Shown in pieces: positions 6,183 to 58,570 of a stretch of 64,000 bases of DNA. Position 1 is the first letter of the stretch. Each line of letters opens with the position of its first letter. Position numbers and translations under genes: made by a program. Origin of the DNA: an uncultured Micavibrio sp. (GTDB lineage: Bacteria; Pseudomonadota; Alphaproteobacteria; Micavibrionales; UBA2020); NCBI GenBank assembly GCA_964575605.1, contig CAZNRN010000006.1, positions 6,849-70,848 of the forward strand. The letters run 5' to 3'. A model generated the notes under the pieces. That model had not been told where the DNA came from and made no database searches. It worked only from the letters and a program-made list of their open reading frames with translations.

Positions 6183-8348
6183 ATGGCTGGTGATAAACTC
6201 ATCAAGGGTTGGAAGGCAGCGCAGACGGTCATAGCGCCGCGCGACGGTACAGCCGTGATCGATATCCATGGCCGCAGCATCCCCGATCCCTTCCGCCCGC
6301 TTGAAAACAAAAACACCTCCGCCGCCTGGGTCCGGGTGGAAGAAGAAAACTTTCAGGAGAGTGTTTCAGCGGAGGGGCAGGCCGCTTTCGTGCAGGCCGC
6401 CGCCGGTTTCCGTGACGAGGTGCAGAAGGGCGTGCCGGTCAAGGCCGGCGACAACTATCTTTTCTATTACCGCGGCAAAGGCGAGGCCCAGGCGCGCGTA
6501 ATGGTTTCCGACACGCCGGACGGCGAGGGCCGCACGCTCATCGACCCGCTCGCCATCGACCCTTCCGGCAAGACGGGTGTCGAAGCCTATCCCAGCCCCG
6601 ATGGAAAATATGTCGCCTGCCGCATCCGCCGCGCCGACATCTGGGAGTCGGAGGTGCGCGTCGTCGAGGTCGAAACAGGCAAGACCCTCGATGAAAAGTT
6701 CAAGGACGCCGGCACTATCGTCTGGGACAAGGACAGCAGGGGCTTCGCCTACAACTACCGCCCCGAACCCGGCAAAAGCGGCCGCGTCACCTATGGCCAC
6801 CATGTGCTGGGGCAGGATTGCGCCGCCGACAAACCGTATTACGACGCCACCACGCGCGAAGGCCCGACCGCCCAGCCCGGCTACGGTTTCCATTACAACC
6901 ACATGGCTTATGACGGGCCGCAGGAATGGGTTTACTGGGGCATGGCTGTCGGCACGCGCGACCTGAAGCCCGGCATCAGCATGAAATCGCCCGGCGACGA
7001 TTATTTCCGCGTGCTGGTCGAACCCGGCACGGCGGATGTCAGCCCGGTCGGCGACAACGGCAGCGGAAAAATCATCGCCTGGACGACCGAGGGGGCGGAA
7101 AAGGGCAGGGTCGTCCTGATCGACCCCGCAAATCCGGCGCCCGGAAACTGGCAAACGCTGATCCCCGCGCAGGACGACGCGCTCCAGCATGCTTTCGTGC
7201 ATGGCGGGCGCATCTACGGTGTTTACATGCACGACAGCGCCGACCGGCTCAGCGTTTTCAGCAAGCAGGGCGAACATATCACCGATGTCGACACCGGCCA
7301 TGCGCGCCTGATATTCGGGCATGCGCAAAACGCCGGCCTTGCGCTGGGCGGCAACCTGCCTGCGCAAGGGGGCGAACTGCTGTTCAGGGCGGAAACCTAT
7401 ACGGGCACGCCGCGCGTCATGGCCTATAACCCCGATGCCAACGCGGTCAGGCCGCTCGATCCCGGCATGGCGGGCCTGCAGCTGGACGGTTGCATAGTCG
7501 AGACGATCCACGCCACATCGCCCGACGGCACAAAAGTGCCGATCACGGTCATCCGCCGCGAAGGCGTGCAACTCGACGGCAGCGCGGCGCTTAAAATCAC
7601 CGGCTACGGCGGCACCGGATGCTCGCAGGGCCCGGGCAGCGATCCCGAAGTGATCGACTTCGTGAAGTCTGGCGGCATTTATGCCGTCGCCCATATCCGC
7701 GGCGGCAGCGAGCTCGGCAAGGCATGGCATGACGGCGGCCGCGGCGAAAACAAGGAAAACTGCATCGAGGATTTCAACGCCTGCGTAAGGCACCTCGTCG
7801 ATCAGCGCTACACCTCGCCGCAGCGCTTGGTGGCGCAGGGGTTCAGCCACGGCGGTTTCGTGGTGCTGGGCGCCATGGAGCGCGAACCCGCGCTTTACGG
7901 CGCGGTGATCGCCGGCTGCCCGCTGACCGACCAGCTGCTGCGCGACCGCACCGTCAGCAGCGACGAATTCGCCGACCCCTACGCCAGCCCGCGCAACCTC
8001 GACATCGCGCTGAAAACCTCGCCGCTGCACAACATCACGCCCGGCGCGAAATACCCGCCGGTGCTGGTGCATACCGCGGAAAACGATTTCCTTTACGCCC
8101 ATTCGCTGAAATTCGTGGCAGCGCTGCGCGCGCTCTGCCCGGACGTGAAAGCGCTGCTGCATGTCGAAAAAGGCTATGGCCATTCCATGGACCGCCCGCC
8201 CGAAATCGAGGCGGACGAGGGCGCAAAGCGCCGTGCCTTTGTCGAGCAGGCCATCGGGCCGATCGGGCAGGATGCCTGGCAGGCAACGCAAAAACCCGCC
8301 ACTGCGGGCAAGGTGACGGCGAAGGCCAAGCCCTCCCCCGCGCGTTAA
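6183..8348 (+). CDS. Divergent prolyl oligopeptidase-family (S9A) serine peptidase
   Basis: N-terminal IPDPFRPLE, beta-propeller region, HIRGGSELGKAWHDGGR, nucleophile GFSHGG, acid ENDF, His in KGYGHS. Confidence 0.85.
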   Translation: MAGDKLIKGWKAAQTVIAPRDGTAVIDIHGRSIPDPFRPLENKNTSAAWVRVEEENFQESVSAEGQAAFVQAAAGFRDEVQKGVPVKAGDNYLFYYRGKGEAQARVMVSDTPDGEGRTLIDPLAIDPSGKTGVEAYPSPDGKYVACRIRRADIWESEVRVVEVETGKTLDEKFKDAGTIVWDKDSRGFAYNYRPEPGKSGRVTYGHHVLGQDCAADKPYYDATTREGPTAQPGYGFHYNHMAYDGPQEWVYWGMAVGTRDLKPGISMKSPGDDYFRVLVEPGTADVSPVGDNGSGKIIAWTTEGAEKGRVVLIDPANPAPGNWQTLIPAQDDALQHAFVHGGRIYGVYMHDSADRLSVFSKQGEHITDVDTGHARLIFGHAQNAGLALGGNLPAQGGELLFRAETYTGTPRVMAYNPDANAVRPLDPGMAGLQLDGCIVETIHATSPDGTKVPITVIRREGVQLDGSAALKITGYGGTGCSQGPGSDPEVIDFVKSGGIYAVAHIRGGSELGKAWHDGGRGENKENCIEDFNACVRHLVDQRYTSPQRLVAQGFSHGGFVVLGAMEREPALYGAVIAGCPLTDQLLRDRTVSSDEFADPYASPRNLDIALKTSPLHNITPGAKYPPVLVHTAENDFLYAHSLKFVAALRALCPDVKALLHVEKGYGHSMDRPPEIEADEGAKRRAFVEQAIGPIGQDAWQATQKPATAGKVTAKAKPSPAR

Positions 8349-8465
8349 GCTCATTTAAAACTAATAATTACAATAGCTTAAAGGTAATTGATTTTGCCTA
8401 AGAAAGCCTATATAGAATTCATGCACTAAATGACTGTTCAAGAAAAACCGAGGGAATGAAACGCC

Positions 8466-8894
8466 ATGGGCGCAGCCAAAGAACGTACACTGTCCATCAT
8501 CAAGCCGGACGCAACCCGCCGCAACCTGACGGGCAAAATCAACGCGAAATTCGAAGACGGCGGCCTGCGCATCGTTGCGCAAAAACGCCTGCACCTCACC
8601 GAAGAACAAGCGGGCAAATTCTATGAAGTCCACAAAGAGCGTCCCTTCTACAAGGACCTCGTGAACTTCATGATCTCCGGCCCTGTCGTCGTGCAGGTGC
8701 TGGAAGGCGCCGACGCCGTAGCCGCCAACCGCAAGATCATGGGCGCGACCAACCCCGCCAACGCCGATCCCGGCACGATCCGCAAGGAATTCGCGGAATC
8801 GATCGAAGCGAACTCGGTGCACGGCTCCGACAGCCTCGACAACGCCAAGCGCGAGATCAACTTCTTCTTCGCCGAAACCGAAATCGTCGGCTAA
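8466..8894 (+). CDS. ndk: Nucleoside-diphosphate kinase
   Basis: [29 protein letters not shown]. Confidence 0.98.
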
Positions 8895-8913
8895 GGCTGA
8901 AGGGATATGATTT

Positions 8914-8943
8914 AAAAACCCGCCGGGCGACCGGCGGGTTTTT
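8914..8943. terminator. Rho-independent terminator after ndk
   Basis: aaaaacccgccgg-gcga-ccggcgggttttt perfect hairpin with T tract. Confidence 0.9.
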
Positions 8944-9028
8944 CTTTTGGAAACCGTGCCGAACCAAACCTTCCCACAGCCGTTATTAAAGGCTATAAAT
9001 GAGCATCCGTTTCAAAAGGAATCCCGCC

Positions 9029-9580
9029 ATGAAAAAAGCAGCCCTTCTCGCCACCGCCGTCCTGTTCCTCGCAACCGCGCCCGCGCGTGCGGAGGAAGCG
9101 GCGCCGCTGGTGACGCCCACGCCCGCGCCGGTGAAGGCCGAGGCGAAACTGCTCGACAACGCCGGCAAGGAAACCGGCACGGTCAATATCACCGAAACGA
9201 AAAAGGGCAGGCTCTTCTCAATCTCCGTCACCGGCCTTACGCCCGGCTGGCACGGCGTTCATATCCACGGCACCGGCGATTGCTCCGACCACGAAGGCCA
9301 TTTCAAGAAAGCGGGCGGCCATGCCGCAGCCGAAGGGCAGAAGCACGGATTTTTGAGCGACGAAGGCCCGCATGACGGCGACCTGCCGAACCTCTGGGTC
9401 GCAGCCGACGGCGCGGGCAAGGCGGAATACTATTCCGAATCCGCCGCGCGCACGATGCAGGACCAGGACGGTTCCGCCCTCATGATCCACGCCGGCCCCG
9501 ACGACTACACGACCGACCCCTCGGGCAATTCCGGCGACCGCGTCGCCTGCGCCGTGATGACCGAAAACAAGGCCAAGTAA
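9029..9580 (+). CDS. sodC: Periplasmic Cu/Zn superoxide dismutase
   Basis: Sec signal peptide; GWHGVHIHGTGDC, AGGH, PHDGDLPNL, ALMIHAGPDDY, GNSGDRVAC. Confidence 0.92.
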   Translation: MKKAALLATAVLFLATAPARAEEAAPLVTPTPAPVKAEAKLLDNAGKETGTVNITETKKGRLFSISVTGLTPGWHGVHIHGTGDCSDHEGHFKKAGGHAAAEGQKHGFLSDEGPHDGDLPNLWVAADGAGKAEYYSESAARTMQDQDGSALMIHAGPDDYTTDPSGNSGDRVACAVMTENKAK

Positions 9581-9734
9581 GCAATTCCGTGCATCGGGAT
9601 AGGCGCTGGCCGTGACTTACCCGCAGCGCCACGCCCGCTTCTTTCGTTATGTAAAATAAAATACCCGTCTCTGCCACTTTATCCTGCACTTTTACCGTAA
9701 TCTGTTGTATATAAGCTGCCGAGCAGGGGCGGGC

Positions 9735-12047
9735 ATGAAGCATAACCTCAAAATCGCGGAACAGCAGGTTCCGGTGGCGGCTGATCTTCCGCCGCCGCGC
9801 CGCAAATCCGTGTCGAAACAGATGCAGGAAAGGTTCGAGAACCGCAAGATATGGCGGCGCACGCTTTCCTTCGCCTATATCGCCCTGCTCTGCGTATACC
9901 TGGGCTGGCGCTTCACCATCATCAACCCGCAATCGCTGGCGCTTTCGATCCTTTATTACGCGACTGACGTGATGGCCTTCCTGCTCAGCGTCACCTCCAT
10001 CGTCATCGTCTGGGATTACAGCCACCGCGAACCGCCACCCGCGCCGCAGGGCAAGACCGTCGACGTCTTCGTGCCGGCGTACAAGGAGCCGATCAACATC
10101 ATCCGCCGCACGGTGATGGCAGCGAAGGCGATATCATATCCGCATGAAACCTGGCTGCTCGACGACGGCAAGCGCGACGAATTGAAAGCCCTTGCGGCGG
10201 AGCTGGGCGTGCATTACCTGCGCCGCCCCGACAACCTGCACGCCAAGGCGGGGAACCTGAATTACGCGCTGAAGCATTCGACGGGCGAATTCGTCATGAG
10301 CTTCGACGCCGACCATATCGCGCAGCCGCATGCGCTCGACGTCACGCTGGGATTTTTCGCGGATGAAAAGGTCGCGCTGGTGCAGACGCCGCAGGATTTT
10401 TATAACACCGAGGCCTTCCAGTACATGCCCGCCAAACGCACCGGCGGCCTGTGGCACGACCAGTCGTATTTCTACAGCATCATGCTGCCGACGGGCGACG
10501 CGGTGAACGGCGCCACTTGCGTCGGCACGGGCGTCGTTTACCGCCGCAGCGCGCTCGAGCACGCAGGCGGCATCCCGACAGACACCGTGACCGAAGACCT
10601 GCACACATCGCTGAAGCTGCACCTGAAAGGCTACAAAACCGTCTACCTGAACGAGCCCATCGCCTATGGCATCGCGGCCGTGGACCTGGCCGAATTCACC
10701 ACCACGCGCCTGCGCTGGGGCCATGGCAACCTGCACGTGCTGGCGCATGAAAAAATCCTCACCTGCAAGGGGCTTACCTTCCGCCAGCGCCTGCAATATA
10801 TCGCCATGGCGCTTTACTATGTGGAAGGCATCCACCAGATGCTGCTGCTGGGCATTCCCATCATTTCGCTGATGACCGGCCTGCAGCCCTTCACCATCAC
10901 CATCTTCAACGTGCTGGTGGTGACGGTATTCCCCATTTTTGCCTATTTCGTGCTGCAGGAAATGGGCTGCGGCTTCTCGCGCCACTGGGCGAACGAGATT
11001 TTCAGCATGGCGCGCTGGCCCATCCTCGTGCGCTCCTGGGCGGGCATTACGCAGCGCCGCATACCATTCCGCGTATCGTCGAAAGCCATGAAGGGCAAAA
11101 CAGGCTGGCACCTGATGGTGCCGCAGCTGGCGGTGATTGTGCTAAGCCTCGCTGCGCTCGCTGCGGGCATTTACAAGCTGGACGGCCATTACGAATTCGG
11201 CCCGCTGTTCCAGTATATCGCCGGCATTTTCACCGGCCACATCCCGCAGGGCGTCGACGTGCATGCGGTGCTGAAGGGCGGCTATACGCTCGACTTCATC
11301 GGCATCGCGGGCTTCTGGGCGATCTATGGCGCCTGCCGCGCAGGTTATTTCGTGTGGAAGACATGGTCGGATGCGCGCAACAGCCACGACTTTTTCCGCT
11401 TCAAATTGCCGCTGCCCGCCAGCATCGACGGCGCGCCCGCTGGCCGCGTCAATGTCATCGCCGAAGACTGGGCGCGCATGGATATTTATCCCGGCCGCCC
11501 TGTCGCGCTGGGTGACGAACTTGCCGTCTCCGTCCACCTGCCCTCGGGGCCGCTGCCTCTGAAATTGCGCGCCGAAAAGATATCCGGCGGCGCGGTGGAG
11601 GGCCATCTGGCCTGGGAAGGGGAGGCGCAGCGCGACAAATTGGCCGCCGCGCTTTATTCCTGTGATTGGCACCGCGAATTCCTGACGCGCAACGCCTATT
11701 TCGTCACGCCGTCTGACGTTCTGCTCTCCTGCATCAGGCTGGAATCGCCCTTTACCGTGAAATACGGAGAATGGCAGGCAGCCCTGCTGGAGATACCCGC
11801 CGGAAATCCCCCCGCCGAAAAACTCTATGCCATTGCCGCGCCGCTTAAAAAGGACCCCGGGCGGGGCTCGCTGGTGACTTTCGGTTATTTCGCGCCGGGG
11901 ACGCGGATGACGGCACGGTTATTCACGGCCGGCGGGTTAAAGGACGCCATTTTCGACATTATGGAAGAAGAGGCGGTATCCTCCCTTATCCAGAAGGGTC
12001 TCGACGGCGCCACGCCCCGCCGTTACGCCATTAAAATAGTTGCGTAA
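9735..12047 (+). CDS. Processive GT2 polysaccharide synthase, cellulose synthase BcsA-like, with degenerate PilZ-like C-terminal region
   Basis: VDVFVPAYKEP, LLDDG, HAKAGNLN, FDADH, VQTPQDF, VTEDL, TRLRW (QxxRW position), multiple TM helices. Confidence 0.85.
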   Translation: MKHNLKIAEQQVPVAADLPPPRRKSVSKQMQERFENRKIWRRTLSFAYIALLCVYLGWRFTIINPQSLALSILYYATDVMAFLLSVTSIVIVWDYSHREPPPAPQGKTVDVFVPAYKEPINIIRRTVMAAKAISYPHETWLLDDGKRDELKALAAELGVHYLRRPDNLHAKAGNLNYALKHSTGEFVMSFDADHIAQPHALDVTLGFFADEKVALVQTPQDFYNTEAFQYMPAKRTGGLWHDQSYFYSIMLPTGDAVNGATCVGTGVVYRRSALEHAGGIPTDTVTEDLHTSLKLHLKGYKTVYLNEPIAYGIAAVDLAEFTTTRLRWGHGNLHVLAHEKILTCKGLTFRQRLQYIAMALYYVEGIHQMLLLGIPIISLMTGLQPFTITIFNVLVVTVFPIFAYFVLQEMGCGFSRHWANEIFSMARWPILVRSWAGITQRRIPFRVSSKAMKGKTGWHLMVPQLAVIVLSLAALAAGIYKLDGHYEFGPLFQYIAGIFTGHIPQGVDVHAVLKGGYTLDFIGIAGFWAIYGACRAGYFVWKTWSDARNSHDFFRFKLPLPASIDGAPAGRVNVIAEDWARMDIYPGRPVALGDELAVSVHLPSGPLPLKLRAEKISGGAVEGHLAWEGEAQRDKLAAALYSCDWHREFLTRNAYFVTPSDVLLSCIRLESPFTVKYGEWQAALLEIPAGNPPAEKLYAIAAPLKKDPGRGSLVTFGYFAPGTRMTARLFTAGGLKDAIFDIMEEEAVSSLIQKGLDGATPRRYAIKIVA

Positions 12048-12164
12048 TTGCTACACTTCCACTCCGAGTTGCGCGACGAGCCCTGACAGCCGTTAACCTT
12101 GCCCTGCGGATAGATTATGGTCTTTCCAGTATAATAAGAACCAAGCTTCGAAAGGGCACATCAG

Positions 12165-21151: not shown

Positions 21152-21772
21152 ATGATGGCACCACGCAACCGTAAACAGGGATACCTTATTGCCGTCGGCG
21201 GCCCATCGGGCGCCGGCAAATCCACGCTCGCTTCGGGCATCTCGCTGCAGCACGATATCCTCTCCGTCGAAATCGATGTGCTGTGGAAACAGCAGCTGGG
21301 CATCCATCCCACGGCCAAAGCGCCCGACGGTTCCTACAGCAATGCCGCGCGCGACAAGGTGCAGGCGGGTTTTGACGGCGCCTGCGTCTCGGCGCTGGTC
21401 GTCGGCCGTACGGTCATCGCGCAGAAAGCTTTTTTACGTCAGGAAGAACGCGAAGCCATCGAACGCCTGGCGCGCAAATGCGACGCACGTTTCCTCGGCC
21501 TCTGGCTCGACGCACCGCAAGCCGTATTGAAAAAACGCATCATGGAGCGTGACGAGAATTTCTCCGACGCGCCTGCCGCCATCGTCAAGAAACAGGCCGC
21601 CATCGAACGCGGCGAGATGAACTGGCGCGTGATCAACGCGGGGCAGGATGCCGACGATGTGCTTGAAACCGCGCTGCATGCCATCCGCGCGCACGGCCCG
21701 CTGCAGCCCTCGCGCAGGCCTACGCCCGAGCGCTTCCAGCACCTCGAACACCTGCTGACCGGCGGAAAATAA
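21152..21772 (+). CDS. Stand-alone P-loop kinase (AAA_33 / gluconate-kinase-like)
   Basis: GGPSGAGKSTLA Walker A; FLGLWLDAP..VLKKRI..R...SDA lid region. Confidence 0.72.
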   Translation: MMAPRNRKQGYLIAVGGPSGAGKSTLASGISLQHDILSVEIDVLWKQQLGIHPTAKAPDGSYSNAARDKVQAGFDGACVSALVVGRTVIAQKAFLRQEEREAIERLARKCDARFLGLWLDAPQAVLKKRIMERDENFSDAPAAIVKKQAAIERGEMNWRVINAGQDADDVLETALHAIRAHGPLQPSRRPTPERFQHLEHLLTGGK

Positions 21773-23053
21773 TTACTTCCAGCGTTTCAGACGCCACGCA
21801 AAGCTAAGCGCGGGGAATTTGCGCCCCAGTGCGGCGAATATCCCGTGCGTGTCGATCCACAGCGCATAGTCGCGGTAGTCCGCGTCTTCGGACAACAGCT
21901 TTTCTTCCACATAGGCGCGCAGCGCATAAATAACACAGACGCAGGCCCAGAGGATGGAGAGGCGCAGGCATTCGAACACCGTATCGCCCGCGACAAAGGG
22001 CATCCACAGCATCAGCCAGACCGCGCATTTCGCGACATAGACCGGATGCTTGGTAAAACGGTAGGGCCCGGTGGTGATAATGCCGCGGTTCGACAGGTTC
22101 GAGGCGCGCAGGCCGAAAATCGCCTCGCCCCAGACATGGATAAGGGTAAAGGCCAGTATCGCGCCGCCCGCCGCGGCCGACAATCCCGGCAGCGAGGCCT
22201 GCAACTCGCCCCAGGGCGAGGCGCTGGTGCCGTCGGCGCGCGCGGTGAAGTTGAACCATTGCAGGAAGACCGCGTTATACAGCGGCGGGTAACAGCTCAA
22301 CGTCACCACCCAGCCGAGCAGGCTTTGATCAACGCGGCGGATATGGGTGCCCAACAACCGCGACGCAAAGAAATATCCCGGCACGATGGCGGCGGCTAGC
22401 AGCGCCATCAGCATGGTGATGATGATATTTTCCGCCTCCGGCCACGGCGCGGTAAAGATATCGCCCTCGCGCCCGCGTATCTGCGCGATAAACGACGCCA
22501 GCGCCGAAAAATTCAGCGGCAGGAAAATCCCGCGCACCAGCCAGCCGAAAGCGGCCTGCTTTACCTGCGCCCAGTCCAGTTTTTTAAAGCGCAGCAGCGC
22601 CAGCTGGCCCAGATGCCATCCCGCATCGCGCGCGGGGCCGATGCGCCATTCGGTCAGCAGGATAAACCCGAACACCACAAAGGGCAGCAGCCCCAGCACG
22701 GCGGGCATCATGCCGAAGAACGGCCGGTACTGCGCCTGCGCATATTCGGGCAAAACCGCCCAGCAGAGCAGCAGGGCGACAATGCCCAGCATCACGCCCG
22801 CGGTTTTTTCCCCCGCACGGCGCGCCAGCTTGCGGAATTCTTCGGGCTTGGGCTTGCGGTTGATCCAGGGCGCGCGAAAGACCTCCACGCCGCCCATCAC
22901 CGCCGCCACGCCCAGCGCGACAATCAGCCCCAGCCCTGCATCCGACACCGCCGCGTCGCGGAACAGCGCATAAAGCGCGGCCACCGTGCCCGCGATGATA
23001 AGCGGGTCCAGCCAGCCGGCGAAAGAGTGCGGAAGGGATGCGGTTTTTGCCAT
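21773..23053 (-). CDS. Long multi-TM ICMT-family methyltransferase-like protein
   Basis: About 10 TM segments; C-terminal RASNLSNRGIITTGPYRFTKHPVY, RAYVEEKLLSED..YRDY. Confidence 0.75.
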   Translation of the reverse strand: MAKTASLPHSFAGWLDPLIIAGTVAALYALFRDAAVSDAGLGLIVALGVAAVMGGVEVFRAPWINRKPKPEEFRKLARRAGEKTAGVMLGIVALLLCWAVLPEYAQAQYRPFFGMMPAVLGLLPFVVFGFILLTEWRIGPARDAGWHLGQLALLRFKKLDWAQVKQAAFGWLVRGIFLPLNFSALASFIAQIRGREGDIFTAPWPEAENIIITMLMALLAAAIVPGYFFASRLLGTHIRRVDQSLLGWVVTLSCYPPLYNAVFLQWFNFTARADGTSASPWGELQASLPGLSAAAGGAILAFTLIHVWGEAIFGLRASNLSNRGIITTGPYRFTKHPVYVAKCAVWLMLWMPFVAGDTVFECLRLSILWACVCVIYALRAYVEEKLLSEDADYRDYALWIDTHGIFAALGRKFPALSFAWRLKRWK

Positions 23054-23591: not shown

Positions 23592-24710
23592 ATGCCTGAC
23601 GTCGAGATCCTCGCCAATCCCGAAGCCCGCCGCGTGCTCACCGCGCGCCCCGGCAAGGAATTGCCGCAGGATGTCTACGACAATCTTGCCAAGCGCCTCT
23701 CGGCCGTCGCGGGCCGCAGCGAGCCCAAGGGCGCCGGCTTTTACGGCGTCGACCTCAACAACGGTTACCGCAGCATTTTCACCTTCAACAAGGACCACCA
23801 GCCGGTGCTGGTTTACGTGGGCGACCACGCGGGCTACGAAAAGCTGTCGCGCGAAATCGCCAAAGACGCCGACAAGGTGCGCAGCAACTTCCTGAAGGAA
23901 ACGCCCGAGAAGGTCACCATCAGCTCGAAAAAAGCGCTCAAGAGCCTGACGTTCGAGGAATTCCGCCACAGCTTCCTGCAGGAAACGGGCAAGACCGATG
24001 TGCTGGCGAAAGAAGCCAAGGCCGCGGCCGAGCTTGCCGAAAATGCCGGCCGGGGCGGGCGATTTATCAAGGGCATCAAGGGCGGCGCGAAGGTTGGCGG
24101 CAAGGTTTTAAAGGTCGTCGCCGTCGGCGTGGTCGCGGCGGAAATACTCGGCCTGACCGAAAAGGCCGAGGCAGCTGAACTTGACGGCCGCCTGCCGAAG
24201 GGCGCGGTCGACGAATACAAAAAGATCCTTGCAGGGCAGGGCGCGACCGTGCTTGACCCGACTTTCATCGGCGGCGAAATCGCCGTGCAGTCGTCCTATA
24301 TGGACTGGGCGAAAAAATACCTGAACGGCAACGCGCAGCTGGAAGCGGAACTGCGCCCCTCCAGCATCCTTGAATCTCTCGGCATGCCCATGCCGACGGT
24401 GGCGGAGGAAAAACGCTCCGAATTCTACCGCAGCGTGCCGGACAAAGAGGCGCCCGGCATGACGGCCGAGATGCGCGAATTCGTGAAGGCGAAACAGGAA
24501 ATCCACAAGGCCTGCGACGCGCTGATGAAACAGAAGACAAGTTTCTGGGGCGCGCTGGCGCAATCGGGCGGCCAGGTGCCCGACGAAGCGCTCTACCCCG
24601 CCGAGGTCAAGGCCATCGACGACGCGCAAAAACGCTTCAACGATTTGTACCAGCGTAAAATCGAAGGCGCAGCACCCGCAAGGCCCGCGCAGTCCGCACC
24701 CGGACGTTAA
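23592..24710 (+). CDS. Hypothetical 372-aa protein with putative N-terminal RelE/ParE-like domain
   Basis: Residues ~1-90 follow the RelE pattern (EILANPEARRVL...GFYGVDLNNGYRSIFTF...VLVYVGDHAGYEKL); Gly-rich hydrophobic segment mid-protein. Confidence 0.7.
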   Translation: MPDVEILANPEARRVLTARPGKELPQDVYDNLAKRLSAVAGRSEPKGAGFYGVDLNNGYRSIFTFNKDHQPVLVYVGDHAGYEKLSREIAKDADKVRSNFLKETPEKVTISSKKALKSLTFEEFRHSFLQETGKTDVLAKEAKAAAELAENAGRGGRFIKGIKGGAKVGGKVLKVVAVGVVAAEILGLTEKAEAAELDGRLPKGAVDEYKKILAGQGATVLDPTFIGGEIAVQSSYMDWAKKYLNGNAQLEAELRPSSILESLGMPMPTVAEEKRSEFYRSVPDKEAPGMTAEMREFVKAKQEIHKACDALMKQKTSFWGALAQSGGQVPDEALYPAEVKAIDDAQKRFNDLYQRKIEGAAPARPAQSAPGR

Positions 24711-35769: not shown

Positions 35770-36501
35770 ATGTTGAAAGATTATTCCATCGAACCGAAAG
35801 ACGGCAAAAAGCCCGAGTATGTGGTGATTTTCTTCCACGGCCTCGGCTCATGCGGCGCGTCGATGCAGAGCTGGGCGGGAGGCCTGCTGTCGGCGCAGCT
35901 GCCGGAGGCAAAGCTGGTCTTCCCCGACGGCCCGATGGAATGGGGGCAGGACGGGGAGGGGAACAAGTACTATTCATGGTTCCCGATCAAGGACCTCATC
36001 GACGGCGACAAAATTCCCGACAAGGCCGAAATCGGCCGCCGCGCCACGGCTGCGGCGAAAGACATGAACGCCTATATAGATGAAGTGATCAAACGCGAAG
36101 GCATCACGGAAGACCGCGTCATTATTGCAGGTTTTTCAATGGGCGGCACGATGGCGGTCTATACCGCCCTGCAGCGCGATACGCCTGTTGCAGGCGTTTA
36201 CGCGCTCTCCGGCGGCGCGCTCGAGCTTGAAAATATCGGCCCCGTGAAATCGATGCCGCCCATCGGCCTTGTCGCGGGCGGGCTGGAGCAGCAGGATTAT
36301 TCCGGCGCCCCGCATGCGGAGAAAGTGCATAAAGCCTTCGATAAAGCGGGCTTCTTCGCCGACTGCGTGATCGTGCCGGGGCAGAAGCACGAGATCAGCC
36401 CCAAATCGATGGAGCTGCTGGCGGTCTTCACCCGCGCCGTGACGGGCGAGCCTTTCAAGGCGAAGCAGGCCGCGGCACGGAACAAGCCGCCCTCGCCCTA
36501 A
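35770..36501 (+). CDS. Alpha/beta hydrolase (phospholipase/carboxylesterase family)
   Basis: VIFFHGLG, VFPDGP, SWF, GFSMGG nucleophile elbow, His in GQKHEIS. Confidence 0.85.
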   Translation: MLKDYSIEPKDGKKPEYVVIFFHGLGSCGASMQSWAGGLLSAQLPEAKLVFPDGPMEWGQDGEGNKYYSWFPIKDLIDGDKIPDKAEIGRRATAAAKDMNAYIDEVIKREGITEDRVIIAGFSMGGTMAVYTALQRDTPVAGVYALSGGALELENIGPVKSMPPIGLVAGGLEQQDYSGAPHAEKVHKAFDKAGFFADCVIVPGQKHEISPKSMELLAVFTRAVTGEPFKAKQAAARNKPPSP

Positions 36502-44662: not shown

Positions 44663-44943
44663 AAAAACTTTTCCTCGCTCTTATAAGGCTCTACCAGCTC
44701 ACGCTCTCGCCGTTTATGGGAAGAAGCTGCCGCTATTACCCCAGCTGCTCGGCCTATATGAAGACATCAATCGAGCGCTTCGGCGCCGCCCGCGGCGTTA
44801 CGCTGGGCGCAAAACGCCTGTGCCGCTGCCATCCTTTCACAAAGGGCGGCTACGACCCCGTCCCTGAAGAATACCCCTCAAAATTATCGCAAGGCTGTGG
44901 TAGAACCGCGCCAAGCAAACAAATGGAAGAACCCACGGCATGA
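44659..44943 (+). CDS. yidD: Membrane protein insertion efficiency factor
   Basis: CRYYPSCSAY, RLCRCHPF..GGYDPVP. Confidence 0.95.
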   Translation: MKKLFLALIRLYQLTLSPFMGRSCRYYPSCSAYMKTSIERFGAARGVTLGAKRLCRCHPFTKGGYDPVPEEYPSKLSQGCGRTAPSKQMEEPTA

Positions 44944-46868
44944 AATCCAACAGCCCGATGACCCCGGAAGACCGCGCGCGCATCATGGTCGCGATCGCGC
45001 TCTCGCTGCTCGTGCTGCTGGGCTATAACTGGTACGCCAAGGGCTTCCCGCATGAAAAAGTGACGGGCGATATCAAGAAGGCCGAAGCCCCGGTGCTGGG
45101 CGGGGACGGCAAGCCCGCCATTCCCGCGAACGACACGACGCCCGCCACCTCGCAGGCAATGCCGCCGCGCGGCGACGCTGTCGCATCCTCGGGCGGCAAG
45201 CGCATCGAATTTTCCAACGGCCGCATGCACGGCACGATCCCCACGGTCGGCAACCGCCTCGACGACCTGCTGCTCGACGAACATTTCGACGACCTGAAGC
45301 GCGAGAACAAGGTGCCGCTGCTGTCCCCCGCCGGCACGAAACACGCCTACTATGTCGAGAACGGCTGGGTCGCCGGCGCCGGCACCGACGCGGCATCGAA
45401 CCCGCTGCCCGGCGCGGATGCCGTCTGGTCGCGCGTTTCCGACAGCGCCTCTCAACTGGAAGGCGGCGGCAAGCCCGTCGTCTTGCGCTGGGATAACGGC
45501 AAGGGCCTTGTCTTCGAGCGCTCGTACGAAATCGACCGCAATTTCCTGTTCACCATCAAGCAGCGCGTGACCAACAACACGGGCAAGGCGGTAAACCTCA
45601 ACAGCTACCACGCGATGTCGCGCAACAGCCTGCCGCCCGACTTCGCCGGCATCTTCACGCACCACGAAGGCTTCGTCGGCTTCATCAACGGCAAAAGCTA
45701 TGACCCCGAGTACAAGGACATCGCCAAGGGCGAGAAACTGAACCTCGAGGGCGCGAAGGGCTGGCTCGGCATCTCCGACAAATACTGGCTGGTGGCCATG
45801 CTGCCGAAGCCGGACGAGGAATTCAACGTGCGCGTCATCGGCAGCCGCGAGCTGGGCAGCGACAAGCAGCACTACCAGGGCGACATCGTCCAGAAAACGC
45901 AAACGGTGCAGCCCGGCGCTTCGGCCGAGGACACGATTTTCCTGTTCACCGGCGTAAAAGACCTGAAATCCATCCAGCGCTACGAGCGCGACCGCGGGTT
46001 TGACCATCTCGAGCTCAGCATCGATTTCGGCATGTGGTATTTCATCACCAAGCCGTTTTACCACCTGCTGCAGTTCCTGTTCTACCTGACGACGAAAATC
46101 GGCCTCGGCACGTATAACGTCGCGGCCTCCATCCTGTTGATGACCCTTGTCATCAGGGGGTTGATGTTCCCCATCGTCAGCCGCCAGTTCAAGTCGATGG
46201 CGAAGATGAAAATCGTCACGCCGATGATGAAGGAACTGCAGACGAAATATAAAGACGACAAACACAAGCTGCAGGCCGAGATGTTCGAGTTGTACAAGAA
46301 GTACGACGTGAACCCGTTCTCCTCCTGCTTCCCCATCTTCATCCAGATCCCCGTGTTCTTCGCGCTGTACAAGGTGCTGATGCTCTCGGTCGAGCTGCGC
46401 CACGCGCCGTTCTGGGGCTGGATCCCCGACTTGTCGGTCGGCGACCCCACAACTATTTTCAACCTCTTCGGCCTGCTGCCTATCAACTCGCCGATTCCGT
46501 ATACGCTGGGCCTCTGGCCGGTGCTGTTCGGCGTCACGATGCTGATGCAAAAACATATCAGCCCGCCGATGCCCGACCCCGCGCAGGAAAAATTGCAGAC
46601 CTTCCTGCCGCTCCTGTTCACGGTGATGTTCGCGCAGTTCCCCTCCGGCCTTGTCATTTACTACACATGGTCGGGCCTGCTGGGCGTGCTGCAGCAATAC
46701 TACATCCTGCGCACGGTAAGCGGCGAGGACACCTCGCTGCTGCGCGGCCACGCCGGCCGCCGCAAGGGCCCCAAGGTGAAGCATAAGGCGGGCGAGGTGA
46801 TTGACGCCGAAGCCGTTGAGGTCACCGACGATAAACATGGTGGCGGCGGCAAGAAGCACAAGAAATGA
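44940..46868 (+). CDS. yidC: Membrane protein insertase
   Basis: GWLGISDKYW, IDFGMWYFITKP, SMAKMK..P, PIFIQIPVFFALYK, ELRHAPF.GWIPDLS, GLVIYY. Confidence 0.97.
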   Translation: MKSNSPMTPEDRARIMVAIALSLLVLLGYNWYAKGFPHEKVTGDIKKAEAPVLGGDGKPAIPANDTTPATSQAMPPRGDAVASSGGKRIEFSNGRMHGTIPTVGNRLDDLLLDEHFDDLKRENKVPLLSPAGTKHAYYVENGWVAGAGTDAASNPLPGADAVWSRVSDSASQLEGGGKPVVLRWDNGKGLVFERSYEIDRNFLFTIKQRVTNNTGKAVNLNSYHAMSRNSLPPDFAGIFTHHEGFVGFINGKSYDPEYKDIAKGEKLNLEGAKGWLGISDKYWLVAMLPKPDEEFNVRVIGSRELGSDKQHYQGDIVQKTQTVQPGASAEDTIFLFTGVKDLKSIQRYERDRGFDHLELSIDFGMWYFITKPFYHLLQFLFYLTTKIGLGTYNVAASILLMTLVIRGLMFPIVSRQFKSMAKMKIVTPMMKELQTKYKDDKHKLQAEMFELYKKYDVNPFSSCFPIFIQIPVFFALYKVLMLSVELRHAPFWGWIPDLSVGDPTTIFNLFGLLPINSPIPYTLGLWPVLFGVTMLMQKHISPPMPDPAQEKLQTFLPLLFTVMFAQFPSGLVIYYTWSGLLGVLQQYYILRTVSGEDTSLLRGHAGRRKGPKVKHKAGEVIDAEAVEVTDDKHGGGGKKHKK

Positions 46869-50315: not shown

Positions 50316-53778
<3,463 letters not shown>

Positions 53779-53781
53779 GCC

Positions 53782-53901: not shown

Positions 53902-53904
53902 GGC

Positions 53905-54528
53905 ATGACCACCCCCGCCGAGCAGCTGGCTGAAAAAAACCGCAAAGTCCTGCGCCGCACGCTGGGCCTTGTCGCCTTTATGGTGCTGGTGTCTTTCGTT
54001 TCCGTCCCGCTGTACCGCCTGACCTGCAAGGTCACGGGCTGGGGCGGCACGCCGCAGGAACAGCTGGACGCCGCCGCGCGCGCGCCGCATGAGGTGCAGA
54101 ACCGCGACATCACCGTGCGCTTCGACGCGCAGGCCGACCGCCGCCTCGCCTGGGATTTCAAGCCCGACCAGGGGCCCGTGACCGTGAAAGTGGGGGAGGA
54201 CAAGCTCGTCTCCTTCAGCGCGCACAATAAAACCGAAGCCCCCATCACCGGCACGGCCGTCTATAACGTGACGCCGCTGAAAGCGGGCAAATACTTCGTG
54301 AAGACCGAATGCTTCTGCTTCGCCGAACAGCTGCTGGCGCCCGGGCAGGCCGTGCATATGCCGGTGTCGTTCTATATCGACCCCGCCATCATGCAGGACC
54401 GCGATATGGCCGATGTCGGTACGATCACGCTGTCATACACCTTCTACCGCGCGTCGTCCGACGAACTGGACGCCGCGACAAACACATTCATCGAACAGCA
54501 CGGTGCCGATACCGTGAATAAAGGATAA
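53905..54528 (+). CDS. ctaG: Cytochrome c oxidase assembly protein CtaG/Cox11
   Basis: VPLYRL.CKVTGWGGT, YNVTP..AGKYF.K.ECFCF.EQ, MPVSFYIDP. Confidence 0.97.
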   Translation: MTTPAEQLAEKNRKVLRRTLGLVAFMVLVSFVSVPLYRLTCKVTGWGGTPQEQLDAAARAPHEVQNRDITVRFDAQADRRLAWDFKPDQGPVTVKVGEDKLVSFSAHNKTEAPITGTAVYNVTPLKAGKYFVKTECFCFAEQLLAPGQAVHMPVSFYIDPAIMQDRDMADVGTITLSYTFYRASSDELDAATNTFIEQHGADTVNKG

Positions 54529-54542
54529 ATAAGGGGACAAAC

Positions 54543-55409
54543 ATGTCAGACGAACATATCCATTACGACCTCAAATCCGGCAAGCCTCATCCTTATCATC
54601 TGGTGAAGCCCTCTCCCTGGCCGCTGTTCGGCTCGATGGCGGCGGGTACGCTGGCCGCGGGCGCCGTGATGTACATGCACAAATTCGCGCCGGGCGGTTT
54701 CTCCATTGGCCTGAAAGGCGTGATACTGGGCTTTATCCTCGTCGGCCTCGTCATGTACGGCTGGTGGAAAGACGTGGTGAAGGAGGCAGTGGTCGAAAAG
54801 GCGCACACGCCCATCACCAAAATCGGCTTCCGCTACGGCATGGCGCTGTTTATTTCGTCCGAGGTGATGTTCTTCGTCGCCTTCTTCTGGGCGTTCTTCG
54901 CGTCCTCGCTGTTCCCGACCGCCGCCATCGGCGGCATCTGGCCGCCCGCAAGCGTCACGCCGATCAAGGCGTTCGAGCTGCCCTTCATGATGACCATGAT
55001 CCTGCTGCTCTCGGGCTGCACCTGCACCTGGGCGCACCACGCGATTTTGGAAGGCAAGAGGGACGAGGCGACCAAGGCGCTGCTGATTACCATCCTTCTG
55101 GGATGCGCTTTCACCTTCTTCCAGGGCTTCGAATACATCCATGCCACCTTCCGCTTCAAGGATACGGACGGCGGCACGATTTATTCCTCGGCCTTCTATA
55201 TGGCGACCGGGTTCCACGGCTTCCACGTGCTGGTCGGCACGATCTTCCTGATCGTCTGCTACTTCCGCAACAAGAAAGGCCACTTCCTGCCCAACAGCCA
55301 TTTTGGCTTCGAGGCCGCGGCATGGTACTGGCACTTCGTTGACGTGGTATGGCTGTTCCTGTTTGCCGCGATCTACTGGTGGGGCAACACCCCCGCCGTG
55401 GCCGGATAA
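54543..55409 (+). CDS. coxC: Cytochrome c oxidase subunit III
   Basis: HPYHLVKPSPWP, LFISSEVMFF, TGFHGFHV, AAWYWHFVDVVWLFL. Confidence 0.98.
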   Translation: MSDEHIHYDLKSGKPHPYHLVKPSPWPLFGSMAAGTLAAGAVMYMHKFAPGGFSIGLKGVILGFILVGLVMYGWWKDVVKEAVVEKAHTPITKIGFRYGMALFISSEVMFFVAFFWAFFASSLFPTAAIGGIWPPASVTPIKAFELPFMMTMILLLSGCTCTWAHHAILEGKRDEATKALLITILLGCAFTFFQGFEYIHATFRFKDTDGGTIYSSAFYMATGFHGFHVLVGTIFLIVCYFRNKKGHFLPNSHFGFEAAAWYWHFVDVVWLFLFAAIYWWGNTPAVAG

Positions 55410-55410
55410 A

Positions 55411-55438
55411 GAAAAAGCCGCCTTCGGGCGGCTTTTTC
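55411..55438. terminator. Bidirectional Rho-independent terminator after coxC
   Basis: gaaaaagccgcc-ttcg-ggcggctttttc. Confidence 0.92.
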
Positions 55439-55467
55439 TTGTCCAGCGGGCGGGTAATTGTCTGGGC

Positions 55468-56325
55468 TTATTCCATCCCCGGCGCGTAGCGGGTGTTGAT
55501 GCGCTTAACGGGGGTGACGGGGGTTTTGTCGATGCTTTTTTCGCGCAGCAGGGAGGTGAGCTCGAGCACCGTGGCGCGAAGCTCTTTTACCTCGGCGGAA
55601 AGACTTTCGATGCTAGGCGGAGCGGTCGGGGCGGTATAGTCCCTGAGGCGCTCCAGCAGCAGCACGGCGTCGAGGTTGCCGAGCGAGCGCTCCCACGAGG
55701 CGGCCTTGGTGACATCCGCGCCGTGCTTGTCGATCAGGTGGCGGCAGACGGCGTCGTTGCCGGCCAGCGCCGCGCGGCGCAGCAGCTGTTCCCCGTTCGC
55801 GCGCGGGTCGAGCCCTGCGGCGGCGAGGATGTCGATGGCGGTGGTGAGGCCTTTATCGGTTGCCGCAAAAAGCAGTTCTTCCTTTTTCTCGACATTGCTG
55901 AGCCCGCCCGCGGCGATTTTGCGCAGCAACGGCATTTTCTGATCCTCGGGCATATCCATGCGCAGCAGCAGCATGGCGGCATGGTTGTCGGTCGCGTTGC
56001 CCCGATCAAAGGTGGGGCAAGCGTAGATGAAGGCGGCGGCGGCCGCGGCATTGCCGGATTGCAGCGCGGCGGGCACCATGAAGGTGCTCATCAGGCGGGG
56101 CATGTCGTCAATGCCATGCCTGAACCAGTGGGTGACGATTTTGTCGATATTGGCGGCCATCAGCTGCGCCATGGGGGCCGACATGGGCGTATAGGTCTCG
56201 CGGTTCATCAGGCCGAAATAGGAGAATTTGCTGGCCAGCAGCTGCTCCATCGCCTTCAGGTCATCGGATGAGATGGCGGCGTTGATCTGGCCGCTTCTCG
56301 TTTTGAACATGTCTGACAGCGCCAT
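55468..56325 (-). CDS. Ankyrin-repeat-like protein with C-terminal coiled coil
   Basis: ELLFAATDKGLTTAIDILAAAGLDP; QLLRRAALAGNDAVCRHLIDKHGADV; no signal peptide. Confidence 0.7.
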   Translation of the reverse strand: MALSDMFKTRSGQINAAISSDDLKAMEQLLASKFSYFGLMNRETYTPMSAPMAQLMAANIDKIVTHWFRHGIDDMPRLMSTFMVPAALQSGNAAAAAAFIYACPTFDRGNATDNHAAMLLLRMDMPEDQKMPLLRKIAAGGLSNVEKKEELLFAATDKGLTTAIDILAAAGLDPRANGEQLLRRAALAGNDAVCRHLIDKHGADVTKAASWERSLGNLDAVLLLERLRDYTAPTAPPSIESLSAEVKELRATVLELTSLLREKSIDKTPVTPVKRINTRYAPGME

Positions 56326-56422
56326 ATTTCTTGTCCTTTTGATATCGGGCAAGGGTAGGCGCACGAGTGTGTTATGTCAAGATGCTATGGAAATGAGTAT
56401 TTTCAGGGGTTTGGGGAGAGGC

Positions 56423-57238
56423 TTAGCCCATCCCGGTTTTCGGCTTCGCAGGCGCGGTGGAGCGGGTTTCTTCGGTTTTGGGGAATTCGACGGGGCAGGT
56501 CTTGTAGCTGGGGTCGCGGATGAACTCTTTCATGACGGCCAGCAGCTGCTTGTCTTCTTCCGCCTGCTTGCGCTGCGCTTCTTCCCAGGCACGGCGCTGG
56601 GCTTCGACGGGCTGCTGCACAAGGTGCGCGTGGCCGTCCTTGTCCAGCGTGATGGCGCCGCTTTTCAGCGCGTCCTGCACAAATTGTTTGGCGAAGCCCA
56701 TGCGGCTGAGGACCTCGAACTTCATCAGGTTGGGCGCGACGAAGGGGTTTTTCTCAAGCGCGGCGTAATCCGTCGGCGTGAAAACCTCGGGGGTGGCCTG
56801 GCGTTCCTTGTATTCGAAATACTTTTCAATCAGGCGGCCCTGCTGCTCGAGGTTATAGTCCTTGAAATCCTTTTTCGGGTCGAGCTTGAATTCGTATGTG
56901 GAGGCGTAATTGCCGAAGCTCGAGATGCCGAGGCCGAGGCCTTCCAGCTGCGGGTCGCGGCCCTGCTGCTTCTGCCAGACGTGCGTCATTTCGTGCATGA
57001 ACAGGCTGCGGCGGAAACCCGTCGAATAGTCGTCCTGATAAATGGCGGTGGGGTAATACATGTTGCCGTCGGGCGTCATGGCCGTGTTGTCGTCCTGCCC
57101 GATGGGCGGGTAATGCCTGTGGTAGAGCCGCACCTTGCTGTAATCGATGCTGTTGCCGAAGACGGTTTTGGCCATCTCGATCTCGCCCTTTGTCAGCGGG
57201 CGGCTTTCGCCGTACTTGATATTAGGCTCGTCACCCAC
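56423..57238 (-). CDS. HExxH zinc-metallopeptidase-like protein (DUF4157/Rhs-VgrG-associated type) with C-terminal extension
   Basis: RPLTKGE..MAKTVFGNSIDY, TAMTPDG, LFMHEMTHVWQ, DYNLEQQ; GTG start preceded by aagggg. Confidence 0.78.
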   Translation of the reverse strand: MGDEPNIKYGESRPLTKGEIEMAKTVFGNSIDYSKVRLYHRHYPPIGQDDNTAMTPDGNMYYPTAIYQDDYSTGFRRSLFMHEMTHVWQKQQGRDPQLEGLGLGISSFGNYASTYEFKLDPKKDFKDYNLEQQGRLIEKYFEYKERQATPEVFTPTDYAALEKNPFVAPNLMKFEVLSRMGFAKQFVQDALKSGAITLDKDGHAHLVQQPVEAQRRAWEEAQRKQAEEDKQLLAVMKEFIRDPSYKTCPVEFPKTEETRSTAPAKPKTGMG

Positions 57239-57327
57239 GCGCCATACCCCTTTTTCCCTGATAGGGTTATTTTACCACGGATGGCATTTTTGGGCGAGGG
57301 TTCGCGGGGAATAGCCTGCGATTCCAG

Positions 57328-57918
57328 CTATTTGACTTTGGGCGGTTTTGGTTTTTTCGGATTGGTGGGGAAAGCGTCGCGTTTCGCATAGGCGGGGTCG
57401 GCGATGAACTTTTCCAGCACTTTTTCGAAGAGGCGTTTTTTCTCGGCGTCGTCGCAGTGGCTGTCCTTGCAGTTGCCCCAGAACTGGTACGCGCCGCCTT
57501 CCTGCTTCATCGCGAAATAATCCTGCACGATGCTGGCCTGCTGCTCCATGTTGTAGTCGATAAGGTCTTTTTTCTCGTCGAGCTTGTACGGGTAAGCCGC
57601 GGCGTAGTTGAAGCCGTGGGAAAGGTTGAGGCGCACGGCCTCGGCCATCGGCGCCAGCACCTTGTTCTGGTACTGCCAGACATGCGTCATTTCGTGGACG
57701 AAGAGCGCCTTCCAGTAGGTGTCCTCTTTCGAATAGTCATCCTTGTAGCAGCCCGGCATGAAGAGGTGGCCGTTCGGCGCCATGGCCGTGCCCTCGGGCA
57801 GCATCGACAGCGCCATGAATTTCTCGTCCGAAATCGTGATGCTCTTGTAATCGAGGCTGTTGCCGAAAACGGTTTTGGCAAGCGCGGTTTCACCGGGGGT
57901 GAGCGGGCGGGCGGGCAT
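57328..57918 (-). CDS. HExxH zinc-metallopeptidase-like protein, tandem paralog
   Basis: RPLTPGE..LAKTVFGNSLDY, TAMAPNG, LFVHEMTHVWQ, DYNMEQQ. Confidence 0.8.
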   Translation of the reverse strand: MPARPLTPGETALAKTVFGNSLDYKSITISDEKFMALSMLPEGTAMAPNGHLFMPGCYKDDYSKEDTYWKALFVHEMTHVWQYQNKVLAPMAEAVRLNLSHGFNYAAAYPYKLDEKKDLIDYNMEQQASIVQDYFAMKQEGGAYQFWGNCKDSHCDDAEKKRLFEKVLEKFIADPAYAKRDAFPTNPKKPKPPKVK

Positions 57919-58048
57919 TCGAGCCTCTCTTCAAATTTTGATGTCCCTTAGTTGTGGACGGGGTTTATGCCGTAAGCAAGGGGGTTTATGGCATGTATTG
58001 ACATAAACCGGCAGGGGTTCTATAACGGGCTGTTTTTAGGAGATGAGA

Positions 58049-58570
58049 ATGTTCGACAAGAACTTCGGCCGGGTCGTTTTAACGCTGCTGCTGATGGCGG
58101 GTGTAGCCGCCGTGGGCGCGGCTGCGCTGGGGGCCTGGGGCGCCTATGCGCTGGCCATCCACCTTGGCGCGTCCAAAGGCCTGGCAATCGCGGCTGCCGT
58201 CGGCGGCGCTGCGGCCGCGCCCGGCATGGGCTATGGCGGTTTTAAAGGCACCAAAAAACTGATGCGCTGGAACAAGAAGCGCAAGTGGCAGCAGCAGATG
58301 CAGCAGAACTACCAGCAGCCCGCCACCTATGCGCCGCCCGTGAGCGCGCCCGTGCCGCGCCCCGAAACGACGCCCGACGGCACGCCCACCATCTTCGTCG
58401 ACGCGATGGAGAAGCTGGAAGAAATGAAGCCCGAGGAGCGCAAGAAATACCTCGAGACCCTGCGCGACAAGTTCCCGAACGAGGTCGACACGCTGCACGG
58501 CTATGACGAGAAGATGGCGCTGAAACAGCCGCTGAAACCCGCCAAGAAAATCACCCTCGCGCAGAAATAA
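58049..58570 (+). CDS. Orphan protein with Gly/Ala-rich TM hairpin, Gln/Pro linker and helical C-domain (alternative start 58043)
   Basis: AGGAG RBS 6 nt before ATG 58049; glycine-zipper-like hydrophobic segments. Confidence 0.72.
   Translation: MFDKNFGRVVLTLLLMAGVAAVGAAALGAWGAYALAIHLGASKGLAIAAAVGGAAAAPGMGYGGFKGTKKLMRWNKKRKWQQQMQQNYQQPATYAPPVSAPVPRPETTPDGTPTIFVDAMEKLEEMKPEERKKYLETLRDKFPNEVDTLHGYDEKMALKQPLKPAKKITLAQK

Follow-up and report, generated by a model that had tools for sequence, protein, structure and literature searches.

Lysine- and proline-rich C-terminal tails across a Micavibrio-like proteome as candidate export signals of an order-wide Dot/Icm system

The genomic window and its tail-bearing proteins

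The window considered here is a stretch of 64,000 nucleotides (positions 6849-70848 of contig 6, henceforth C6) from the genome of an uncultured Micavibrio species, hereafter G000 (3.70 Mb in 87 contigs, 98% complete); homology of its AlaS places it among uncultured Micavibrio-like Alphaproteobacteria. Our subject is a type of short C-terminal tail rich in lysine and proline (the K/P tail), which an initial annotation had noticed at the ends of seven accessory proteins of the window and had read as a possible common signal for type IV secretion. Genes were called with a purpose-written codon-usage caller, which returned 3518 genes for G000 at a coding density of 86%, and a protein was counted as tail-bearing if its last 20 residues contained K+R >= 4, P >= 2, D+E <= 2 and hydrophobic residues <= 5. 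The seven proteins, followed by an eighth that this loose criterion picks out in the window, are:

6153..8348, plus strand: S9 (prolyl-oligopeptidase family) peptidase, 731 aa, with Pfam support; tail at 8292-8345, KPATAGKVTAKAKPSPAR, net +5, 3 Pro
23592..24710, plus strand: unassigned 372-aa protein, no family match; tail at 24666-24707, GAAPARPAQSAPGR, Arg-based, net +3
35770..36501, plus strand: Abhydrolase_2 esterase, 243 aa, with Pfam support; tail at 36451-36498
55468..56364, minus strand: weak ankyrin-repeat protein, about 285-298 aa, weak Pfam Ank match; tail at 55471-55527, net +2, weak
56423..57238, minus strand: HExxH protein A, 271 aa, paralog of HExxH B over its N-terminal ~140 aa; tail at 56426-56464, net +2
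57328..57918, minus strand: HExxH protein B, 196 aa, paralog of HExxH A; tail at 57331-57369, PTNPKKPKPPKVK, net +6, 5 Pro
58043..58570, plus strand: protein of 173-175 aa carrying a hydrophobic signal or anchor at its N-terminus; tail at 58523-58567, KQPLKPAKKITLAQK, net +5
21152..21772, plus strand: AAA_33 kinase-like protein, 206 aa, the eighth

All seven peptides quoted in the initial annotation are true C-termini, each directly preceding the stop codon of a real open reading frame (ORF). Over their last 20 residues they combine 4-7 K+R and 2-5 P with 0-2 D+E and 1-5 hydrophobic residues, and the net charge of the tails ranges from +2 to +6; those of the ankyrin protein and HExxH A are weak, at the 74th and 85th percentile, respectively, among all C-termini. 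The hydrophobic residues are scattered and none of the seven tails contains a helix-length hydrophobic run; in this the K/P tails differ from PEP-CTERM/LPXTG-like sorting tags, lacking the hydrophobic helix that precedes the basic cluster. The likeness among the seven is one of composition and not of sequence, no motif being common to all, and the cases are not all separate since HExxH A and B are paralogs. Pfam bears out the proposed S9 peptidase and esterase domains and gives the ankyrin repeats a weak match; it does not support the 'RelE-like' fusion that had been seen in the 372-aa protein, and a metallopeptidase match for the window tail-bearers appears only at the level of a weak hint. 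The supposed lack of a Sec/Tat signal holds for six of the seven but fails for ORF 58043-58570, which carries a strong N-terminal hydrophobic segment (RVVLTLLLMAGVAAVGAAALGAW, Kyte-Doolittle value 2.76), a Sec-type signal or anchor (such segments were scored here by a Kyte-Doolittle heuristic, not SignalP). AlaS, Ndk and CoxC, as had been remarked, are without such ends, and the basic ends of YidC (44940-46868, GGGGKKHKK) and PyrD (mildly basic) are confirmed.

AlphaFold2 models, built on small ortholog alignments, predict a confident fold for the esterase (mean pLDDT 88) with the last ~13 residues dropping to 60 and then 47, and likewise a confident fold for HExxH B followed by residues 182-196 at pLDDT 34-42. 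Between orthologs across the genus, at 46-65% identity, the tail sequence is unalignable and its K/P-rich basic character is kept: the esterase orthologs (five aligned, a sixth found by tblastn) each have their own, different K/P-rich tail. KP[VL]L[RS]xP closes four of the five weak-ankyrin orthologs, G006 as the fifth having a different Pro-rich tail, and in HExxH B the element FP...KKPK is invariant across four orthologs. The window S9 peptidase is a divergent paralog specific to G000; across 60 genomes of the order it lacks a close ortholog (best identity 37%). A second S9 paralog of G000 (C30:902-3121) matches the family-wide copy and has a strongly basic end, KKKPCKFKCYKKDKKFGT.

The tails as a property of the proteome

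The tail observation is real, yet much broader than first noted. Across G000, 365 of 3350 proteins (10.9%) are tail-bearing, whereas the rate is 0.9% for internal windows and 2.5% for N-termini, so that C-termini exceed internal positions 12-fold. The window itself shows no enrichment over this genome rate (8/60, p = 0.33), on which ground a window-specific cluster of tails is rejected; the tail type is a proteome-level and not a window-level property. Grouped by sequence, the bearers make up 271 clusters, of which 179 are singletons, with ~260 tails in excess of a ~3% background. The 'scattered effector repertoire' of the initial annotation is thus far larger than seven as a set of tails, its members being candidate effectors.

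The tail type belongs firmly to the end of the protein. The enrichment of K and P fades by about -20 from the C-terminus, tails having a median length of ~13 residues, and the remainder of a tail-bearing protein is not rich in K and P. The last ~12 residues show a depletion of D and E, with a mild E/D enrichment at -25 to -35, and a net charge >= +4 is found at 11.8% of G000 C-termini versus 1.9% of internal windows. The basic character is chiefly due to Lys, with K:R at 2.3:1 in tails versus 1.08:1 in gene bodies. There is, moreover, a terminal register (P 2.2x at -1, K 2.4x at -2 and P 2.4x at -3): 'KP' is the end of 99 proteins, and 'PKP' that of 45, at 75x its internal frequency.

The distribution over proteins is likewise skewed. 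Eighty-one percent of the tail-bearers are soluble proteins without an N-terminal hydrophobic segment, and the tail is depleted in proteins with a Sec-like N-terminus (odds ratio 0.40, p = 1e-9). A comparison of orphan with conserved proteins, as suggested in the initial annotation, found the tail in 3.4% of proteins with order- or class-level orthologs versus 11.9% of the remainder (p = 1e-8); the outgroup orthologs of those conserved proteins carry it at 3.2%, on a par with their G000 counterparts.

Two trivial sources can be set aside. GC content at third codon positions (GC3) is 0.70 in tails and 0.77 in gene bodies, whereas the downstream GC is 0.54, and in-frame translation of the 3' flanks gives Arg-rich, Lys-poor peptides (K 5%, R 11%, Phe 5%, Leu 8%); on codon usage and flank translation, capture of the 3' untranslated region or stop-codon drift is rejected. 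An artefact of gene calling is rejected as well, the codon scores of tail-bearing genes being equal to those of other genes.

For comparison, 200-400 kb were sampled from each of seven genomes and processed with the same gene caller, with the following K/P-tail frequencies:

G000, source genome: 10.9%
G001, same genus: 6.9%
G062, same family, other genus: 8.3%
G016, same order, other family: 3.3%
G020, same order, other family: 1.8%
G029, other Alphaproteobacteria: 3.2%
G025, other Alphaproteobacteria: 4.8%
G033, other Alphaproteobacteria: 2.5%

All the genomes sampled are enriched in Lys close to the C-terminus (1.3-2.0x); what is peculiar to the family is the Pro component together with the tail excess. 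The non-shared genes of G029 have a tail rate of about 3.4% (7/207, by arithmetic from the other counts).

The ankyrin family and its C-terminal module

The tails are particularly frequent in a large ankyrin-repeat family, which with 174 members makes up about 5% of the genes of this 3.7-Mb genome (an ANK consensus regular expression matches 76 of the 174 versus 2 of 3176 other proteins). A K/P tail or a related module occurs in 59% of this ankyrin cluster versus 11% of proteins elsewhere. The module, found by unbiased enrichment over a reduced alphabet and then modelled as a hidden Markov model (HMM), reads roughly [ND]G-x4-[IV]-x-V-[MKR]-[KR]-P-[LIV]-x-[LF]-K-[KP]-P (phi below denoting a hydrophobic position) and stops 6-15 residues short of the terminus. 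It is present in about 158 G000 proteins (e.g., at C1:131390-132262, C13:40247-44387 and C4:7057-9988) versus one match in the internal control; 70 of these proteins belong to the ankyrin cluster, often as tandem gene arrays. Among relatives, it has six matches in 400 kb of G062 and none in 400 kb of G001. As a motif common to the seven window tails it is rejected: its HMM matches none of the seven, and the module is absent from the window.

A near-complete Dot/Icm system

A C-terminal signal for type IV secretion calls for a matching type IV secretion system (T4SS), and on this point the suggested search gave a divided answer. VirB4 (PF03135) and VirD4/TraG (PF02534) have no match in the 98%-complete G000, and neither a type VI secretion system (T6SS) sheath (TssC) nor a contractile phage sheath was found there. 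The first searches, however, missed a T4SS because models for VirB4, VirD4, T6SS and sheaths do not detect type IVB parts; a weak TraG-D_C match pointed to DotL and DotM, and the notion of a genome without a T4SS was rejected. As judged by homology and gene position, G000 has a near-complete type IVB secretion system (T4BSS) of the Dot/Icm kind, laid out in the same gene order as in Legionella:

C13:55998-60350: dotL and dotM, by family models, separated by small ORFs
C1:135869-147380 (135.9-147.4 kb): two copies of icmL, icmK, icmE, icmG, small genes in the icmC/icmD positions, icmJ, and a 1023-aa gene in the icmB/dotO position
C1:38645-41608 (38.6-41.6 kb): dotD, a gene in the dotC position, and dotB
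C6:72684-75716: dotA, 2.3 kb past the right end of the window

Nine components are recognized by family model, namely DotA (206 bits), DotB (392), DotD (110-125), DotG (149), DotH (238), DotI (184, in two copies), DotL (369, as the DotL-type type IV coupling protein), DotM (157, DotM_C) and DotN (93, just below the curated cut-off of 100). A DotF match is weak, and DotC, DotO and the genes in the icmC/icmD positions were identified solely from a placement like that in Legionella.

The system is a fixture of the order: 60 of 61 sampled genomes (30 of 30 genera) have one chromosomal copy of DotH, and outside the order it was found in one of 25 other alphaproteobacterial families. The cultured predator Micavibrio aeruginosavorus HCB189 (NZ_CP195303.1) encodes a DotL homolog of 53% identity. 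The 2011 genome paper on M. aeruginosavorus ARL-13 reported no evidence of a type III or IV system (PMC3189940), and our literature search found no report connecting Micavibrio with a T4BSS. Irrespective of the tails, the order-wide Dot/Icm and the DotL homolog of a cultured predator are of note in themselves.

The tails as possible Dot/Icm signals

With the tail concentrated in non-conserved proteins and a Dot/Icm system in the genome, the proposal of a C-terminal T4SS signal is partly supported and survives both refutation tests run. Specifically, we advance, as a reading that we place a little short of an even chance, that the K/P tails are C-terminal export signals of the T4BSS. Under this proposal, cargo would be taken from the cytoplasm via the DotL-DotM-DotN coupling complex, the K/P tails being read by the Dot/Icm machine, and injected into a contacted cell, which might be bacterial prey or a eukaryote. 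The cargo profile fits: it is cytoplasmic, accessory, ankyrin-rich and amounts to about 10% of the proteome. The tails lie at the extreme C-terminus and keep their composition between orthologs, and within +-10 genes of the dot/icm loci they show a modest excess (18.8% vs 10.8%, p = 0.025). There is precedent for its elements in that T4SS signals are C-terminal and often compositional, those of VirB/D4 systems being positively charged (PMC10025392), Legionella translocates > 300 effectors (PMC5802825), and bacteria can be killed by a T4BSS (PMC9519443).

A fuller version of this proposal joins an order-wide, vertically inherited chromosomal Dot/Icm to family-level K/P tails and the K-P-phi-x-phi-K module as marks of several hundred substrates (about 100 of them ankyrin proteins), with a charge opposite to that of the Legionella E-block and a putative receptor that would read them. 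Taken as a whole, we consider this version possible but somewhat doubtful. Were it true, (i) an uncultured family related to bacterial predators would possess a Legionella-sized arsenal of several hundred effectors; (ii) a simple sequence rule would suffice to list them; (iii) Dot/Icm coupling complexes would be able to evolve toward a signal of opposite charge. A scenario of co-evolution between coupling complex and signal has been raised in the DotM structure paper (PMC5802825).

Against the proposal that the Dot/Icm reads these tails stand a number of observations, the first of which concern the receptor. The cytoplasmic domain of DotM in G000 is strongly basic (isoelectric point 9.7, net +15) and hence a poor electrostatic partner for basic tails. 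The Glu-binding residues R196, R197, R217, R314 and R315 of Legionella DotM correspond to D, R, K, R and N, respectively, three of the five being basic, and a charge reversal of the effector-binding patch is not seen. DotL (C13:55998-58580), on the other hand, is acidic and has a C-terminal extension (last ~260 residues) with 3-4 acidic P-phi-[ST]-W-x-[DE]-V-I-G repeats, which may be docking sites. These repeats occur in six of six genomes of the family; of the other groups, f8 has them too and f4 has a divergent form, while f3, f5 and f6 are without them. Repeat status is concordant with tail status in five of five genomes with measured tails. Nevertheless, in a test of low power with a crude ORF caller, repeat status did not predict tail frequency among dotL neighbours in 75 genomes (8.2% vs 6.0%, p = 0.25; GC-matched, 6.9% vs 6.6%), and on this test the repeats are rejected as the receptor. 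No receptor for the tails was found among the features of DotM and DotL.

The tails themselves also depart from the best-known signals of this machine. The Glu-rich E-block at -10 to -17 is absent, no tail-bearer having >= 3 D/E there (an outcome that the selection criterion in part imposes), and 23% of tail-bearers vs 46% of other proteins have a hydrophobic residue at -3/-4. Among the proteins with background tails are the ribosomal proteins L3, L28 and L25 as well as pyrophosphatase, cytidylate kinase and adenosine deaminase (identities from reading the N-terminal sequence, without family models). The sister families represented by G016 and G020 have a T4BSS yet no K/P-tail excess, which implies that this machine does not in general require the tail. 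Several hundred substrates would, moreover, be a very large arsenal for a 3.7-Mb genome. Finally, the clustering near the dot/icm loci noted above is weak and depends on the neighbourhood chosen, the difference not being significant at other sizes, and a larger figure for any kind of tail includes a class (described below) that was defined after it had been seen beside dotD.

Alternative explanations

One alternative, unlikely in our view but not negligible, is that the tails are basic disordered regions with a function that has nothing to do with export: polycationic, polyproline-II-like anchors that would attach to an anionic surface (phospholipids of a membrane, nucleic acid, polyphosphate or lipopolysaccharide) in the producer or the target cell. 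Models for such anchors are the histone-H1-like K/A/P tails of AlgP, PhaF and HupB, and polybasic membrane-targeting tails. The retention of composition without sequence, the net positive charge and the predicted disorder would all agree with this, as would the basic DotM and the failure to find a receptor. Some of the bearers are nucleic-acid-binding or housekeeping proteins, e.g., the ribosomal proteins mentioned above and a PhaF-like AKP-repeat protein that is among the tail-bearers. Anchoring is, further, compatible with secretion, as the tail could act post-delivery. However, it leaves unexplained why the tails avoid outgroup-conserved proteins (3.4% vs 11.9%) and those with a Sec-like N-terminus, why unrelated enzymes such as esterases and peptidases should need a polyanion anchor, and why the position is strictly at the extreme C-terminus with a Pro-Lys-Pro end.

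A second alternative, which we regard as rather improbable, is that the tails have no function and are a by-product of rapid 3'-end turnover in young, fast-evolving genes of the family, with selection merely filtering for solubility and against degron-like hydrophobic ends atop a general bacterial C-terminal preference for Lys. The Lys enrichment in all sampled genomes is what it would predict, as are the variable length of the tails, the unalignable tails of orthologs, a slightly relaxed codon bias in the tails and the concentration of the excess in lineage-specific genes. Yet the peptides encoded by real 3' flanks are rich in Arg and poor in Lys, contain 5% Phe and 8% Leu, and do not resemble the tails; the accessory genes of an outgroup show no excess (G029, 3.2% overall and about 3.4% for non-shared genes); and the K/P composition persists though the folded bodies have diverged to ~50% identity. 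The invariant KKPK of HExxH B and the 75x enrichment of PKP before the stop are equally hard to reconcile with it.

Very improbable is a third, that the tails are signals of another one-step pathway such as type I secretion (HlyB/HlyD/TolC): G000 does encode components of a type I secretion system (T1SS), two bona fide type-I HlyD membrane-fusion proteins among them, such systems use an uncleaved C-terminal signal, and reported T1SS substrates include ankyrin proteins of Orientia and Ehrlichia (PMC4315096, PMC3417381), but G020 has a T1SS without the tails, and an identity with T1SS signals is rejected on a tail composition opposite to theirs, the last 50 residues having 26% KHPMWC in tail-bearers vs 20% in others (16-42% in the seven window proteins) and 46% LDAVTSIF vs 51%.

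Comparison with known C-terminal signals

How the K/P tails, if indeed they are export signals of the Dot/Icm, would relate to characterized systems is best seen from their likenesses and differences. In VirB/D4 (type IVA) systems, known examples are the Arg motif of Agrobacterium VirF/VirE2 and the BID domain with a positively charged tail of the Bartonella Beps (PMC10025392). Like these signals, the K/P tails are uncleaved, sit at the extreme C-terminus, are net positive, conserve composition more than sequence and occur on soluble cytoplasmic cargo in Alphaproteobacteria. Unlike them, they are found in a genome without a VirB4 or VirD4-type system, have no BID-like domain and number hundreds of bearers instead of a handful. 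The VirB/D4 consensus motif is Arg-based (Vergunst 2005, via PMC10025392), whereas the K/P tails are Lys-based and Pro-rich, that of 23592-24710 being the only Arg-based one of the seven.

The signals of the Legionella and Coxiella Dot/Icm comprise a C-terminal region of small, polar and charged residues, an E-block read by DotM and a hydrophobic residue at -3/-4, with an additional FxxxLxxxK signal for LvgA in Dot/Icm effectors (PMC5802825, PMC10025392, PMC9519443). Here, the machine is of the same family, with the same DotL-DotM-DotN coupling complex and gene order; the candidate arsenal is, as in Legionella, about 10% of the proteome, ankyrin-rich and scattered over the genome; and the tail is C-terminal and disordered. 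The difference is in the charge, which is opposite in the K/P tails, with their D/E-depleted last ~12 residues.

A bacterial target has a parallel in the kib T4BSS of Pseudomonas putida IsoF, which mediates contact-dependent bacterial killing (PMC9519443). Like kib, the system of G000 is of the Dot/Icm type and might be directed at bacteria, as would befit a relative of an epibiotic predator. Kib, however, lies on a recently acquired island with one effector-immunity pair, whereas the Dot/Icm of the Micavibrio order is chromosomal, conserved in 60/61 genomes and paired with hundreds of candidate substrates. As for type I signals, these are rich in LDAVTSIF and poor in KHPMWC according to a secondary account (PMC3417381, quoting Delepelaire 2004); the K/P tails resemble them in being C-terminal, uncleaved and poorly conserved in sequence, in a genome that has a T1SS, but reverse their composition, being rich in the residues that T1SS signals disfavour.

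Other C-terminal tail types and a neighbouring gene

In addition to the K/P tail and the module, a third type of tail consists of a basic/Gly-rich stretch followed by phi-[SNKR]-L and the stop (GFSL, GLNL, SFSL, FKL). It is found in six tandem genes at C1:43336-47238, beside dotD-dotC-dotB, as well as at C2:128548-129148 and C13:50992-51495, and comprises about 35 proteins by a regular expression set after the fact. It has a hydrophobic residue at -3, which may be likened to Legionella RalF-type signals.

A different kind of ending, '-AA', is 1.6-9x commoner than the internal frequency of AA predicts in G000 and most sampled Alphaproteobacteria. It accounts for 5.9% of G000 proteins and 10.8% in G016, with 'KAA' ending 48 G000 proteins (17x), and falls on housekeeping proteins too. 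As a signature of the lineage it is rejected, since the outgroups have such ends as well.

Within the window, positions 21773-23053 (minus strand) encode a membrane protein of 426 aa that combines an isoprenylcysteine carboxyl methyltransferase (ICMT) domain with a basic end, WRLKRWK; ICMT is a protein-modifying enzyme family of eukaryote type.

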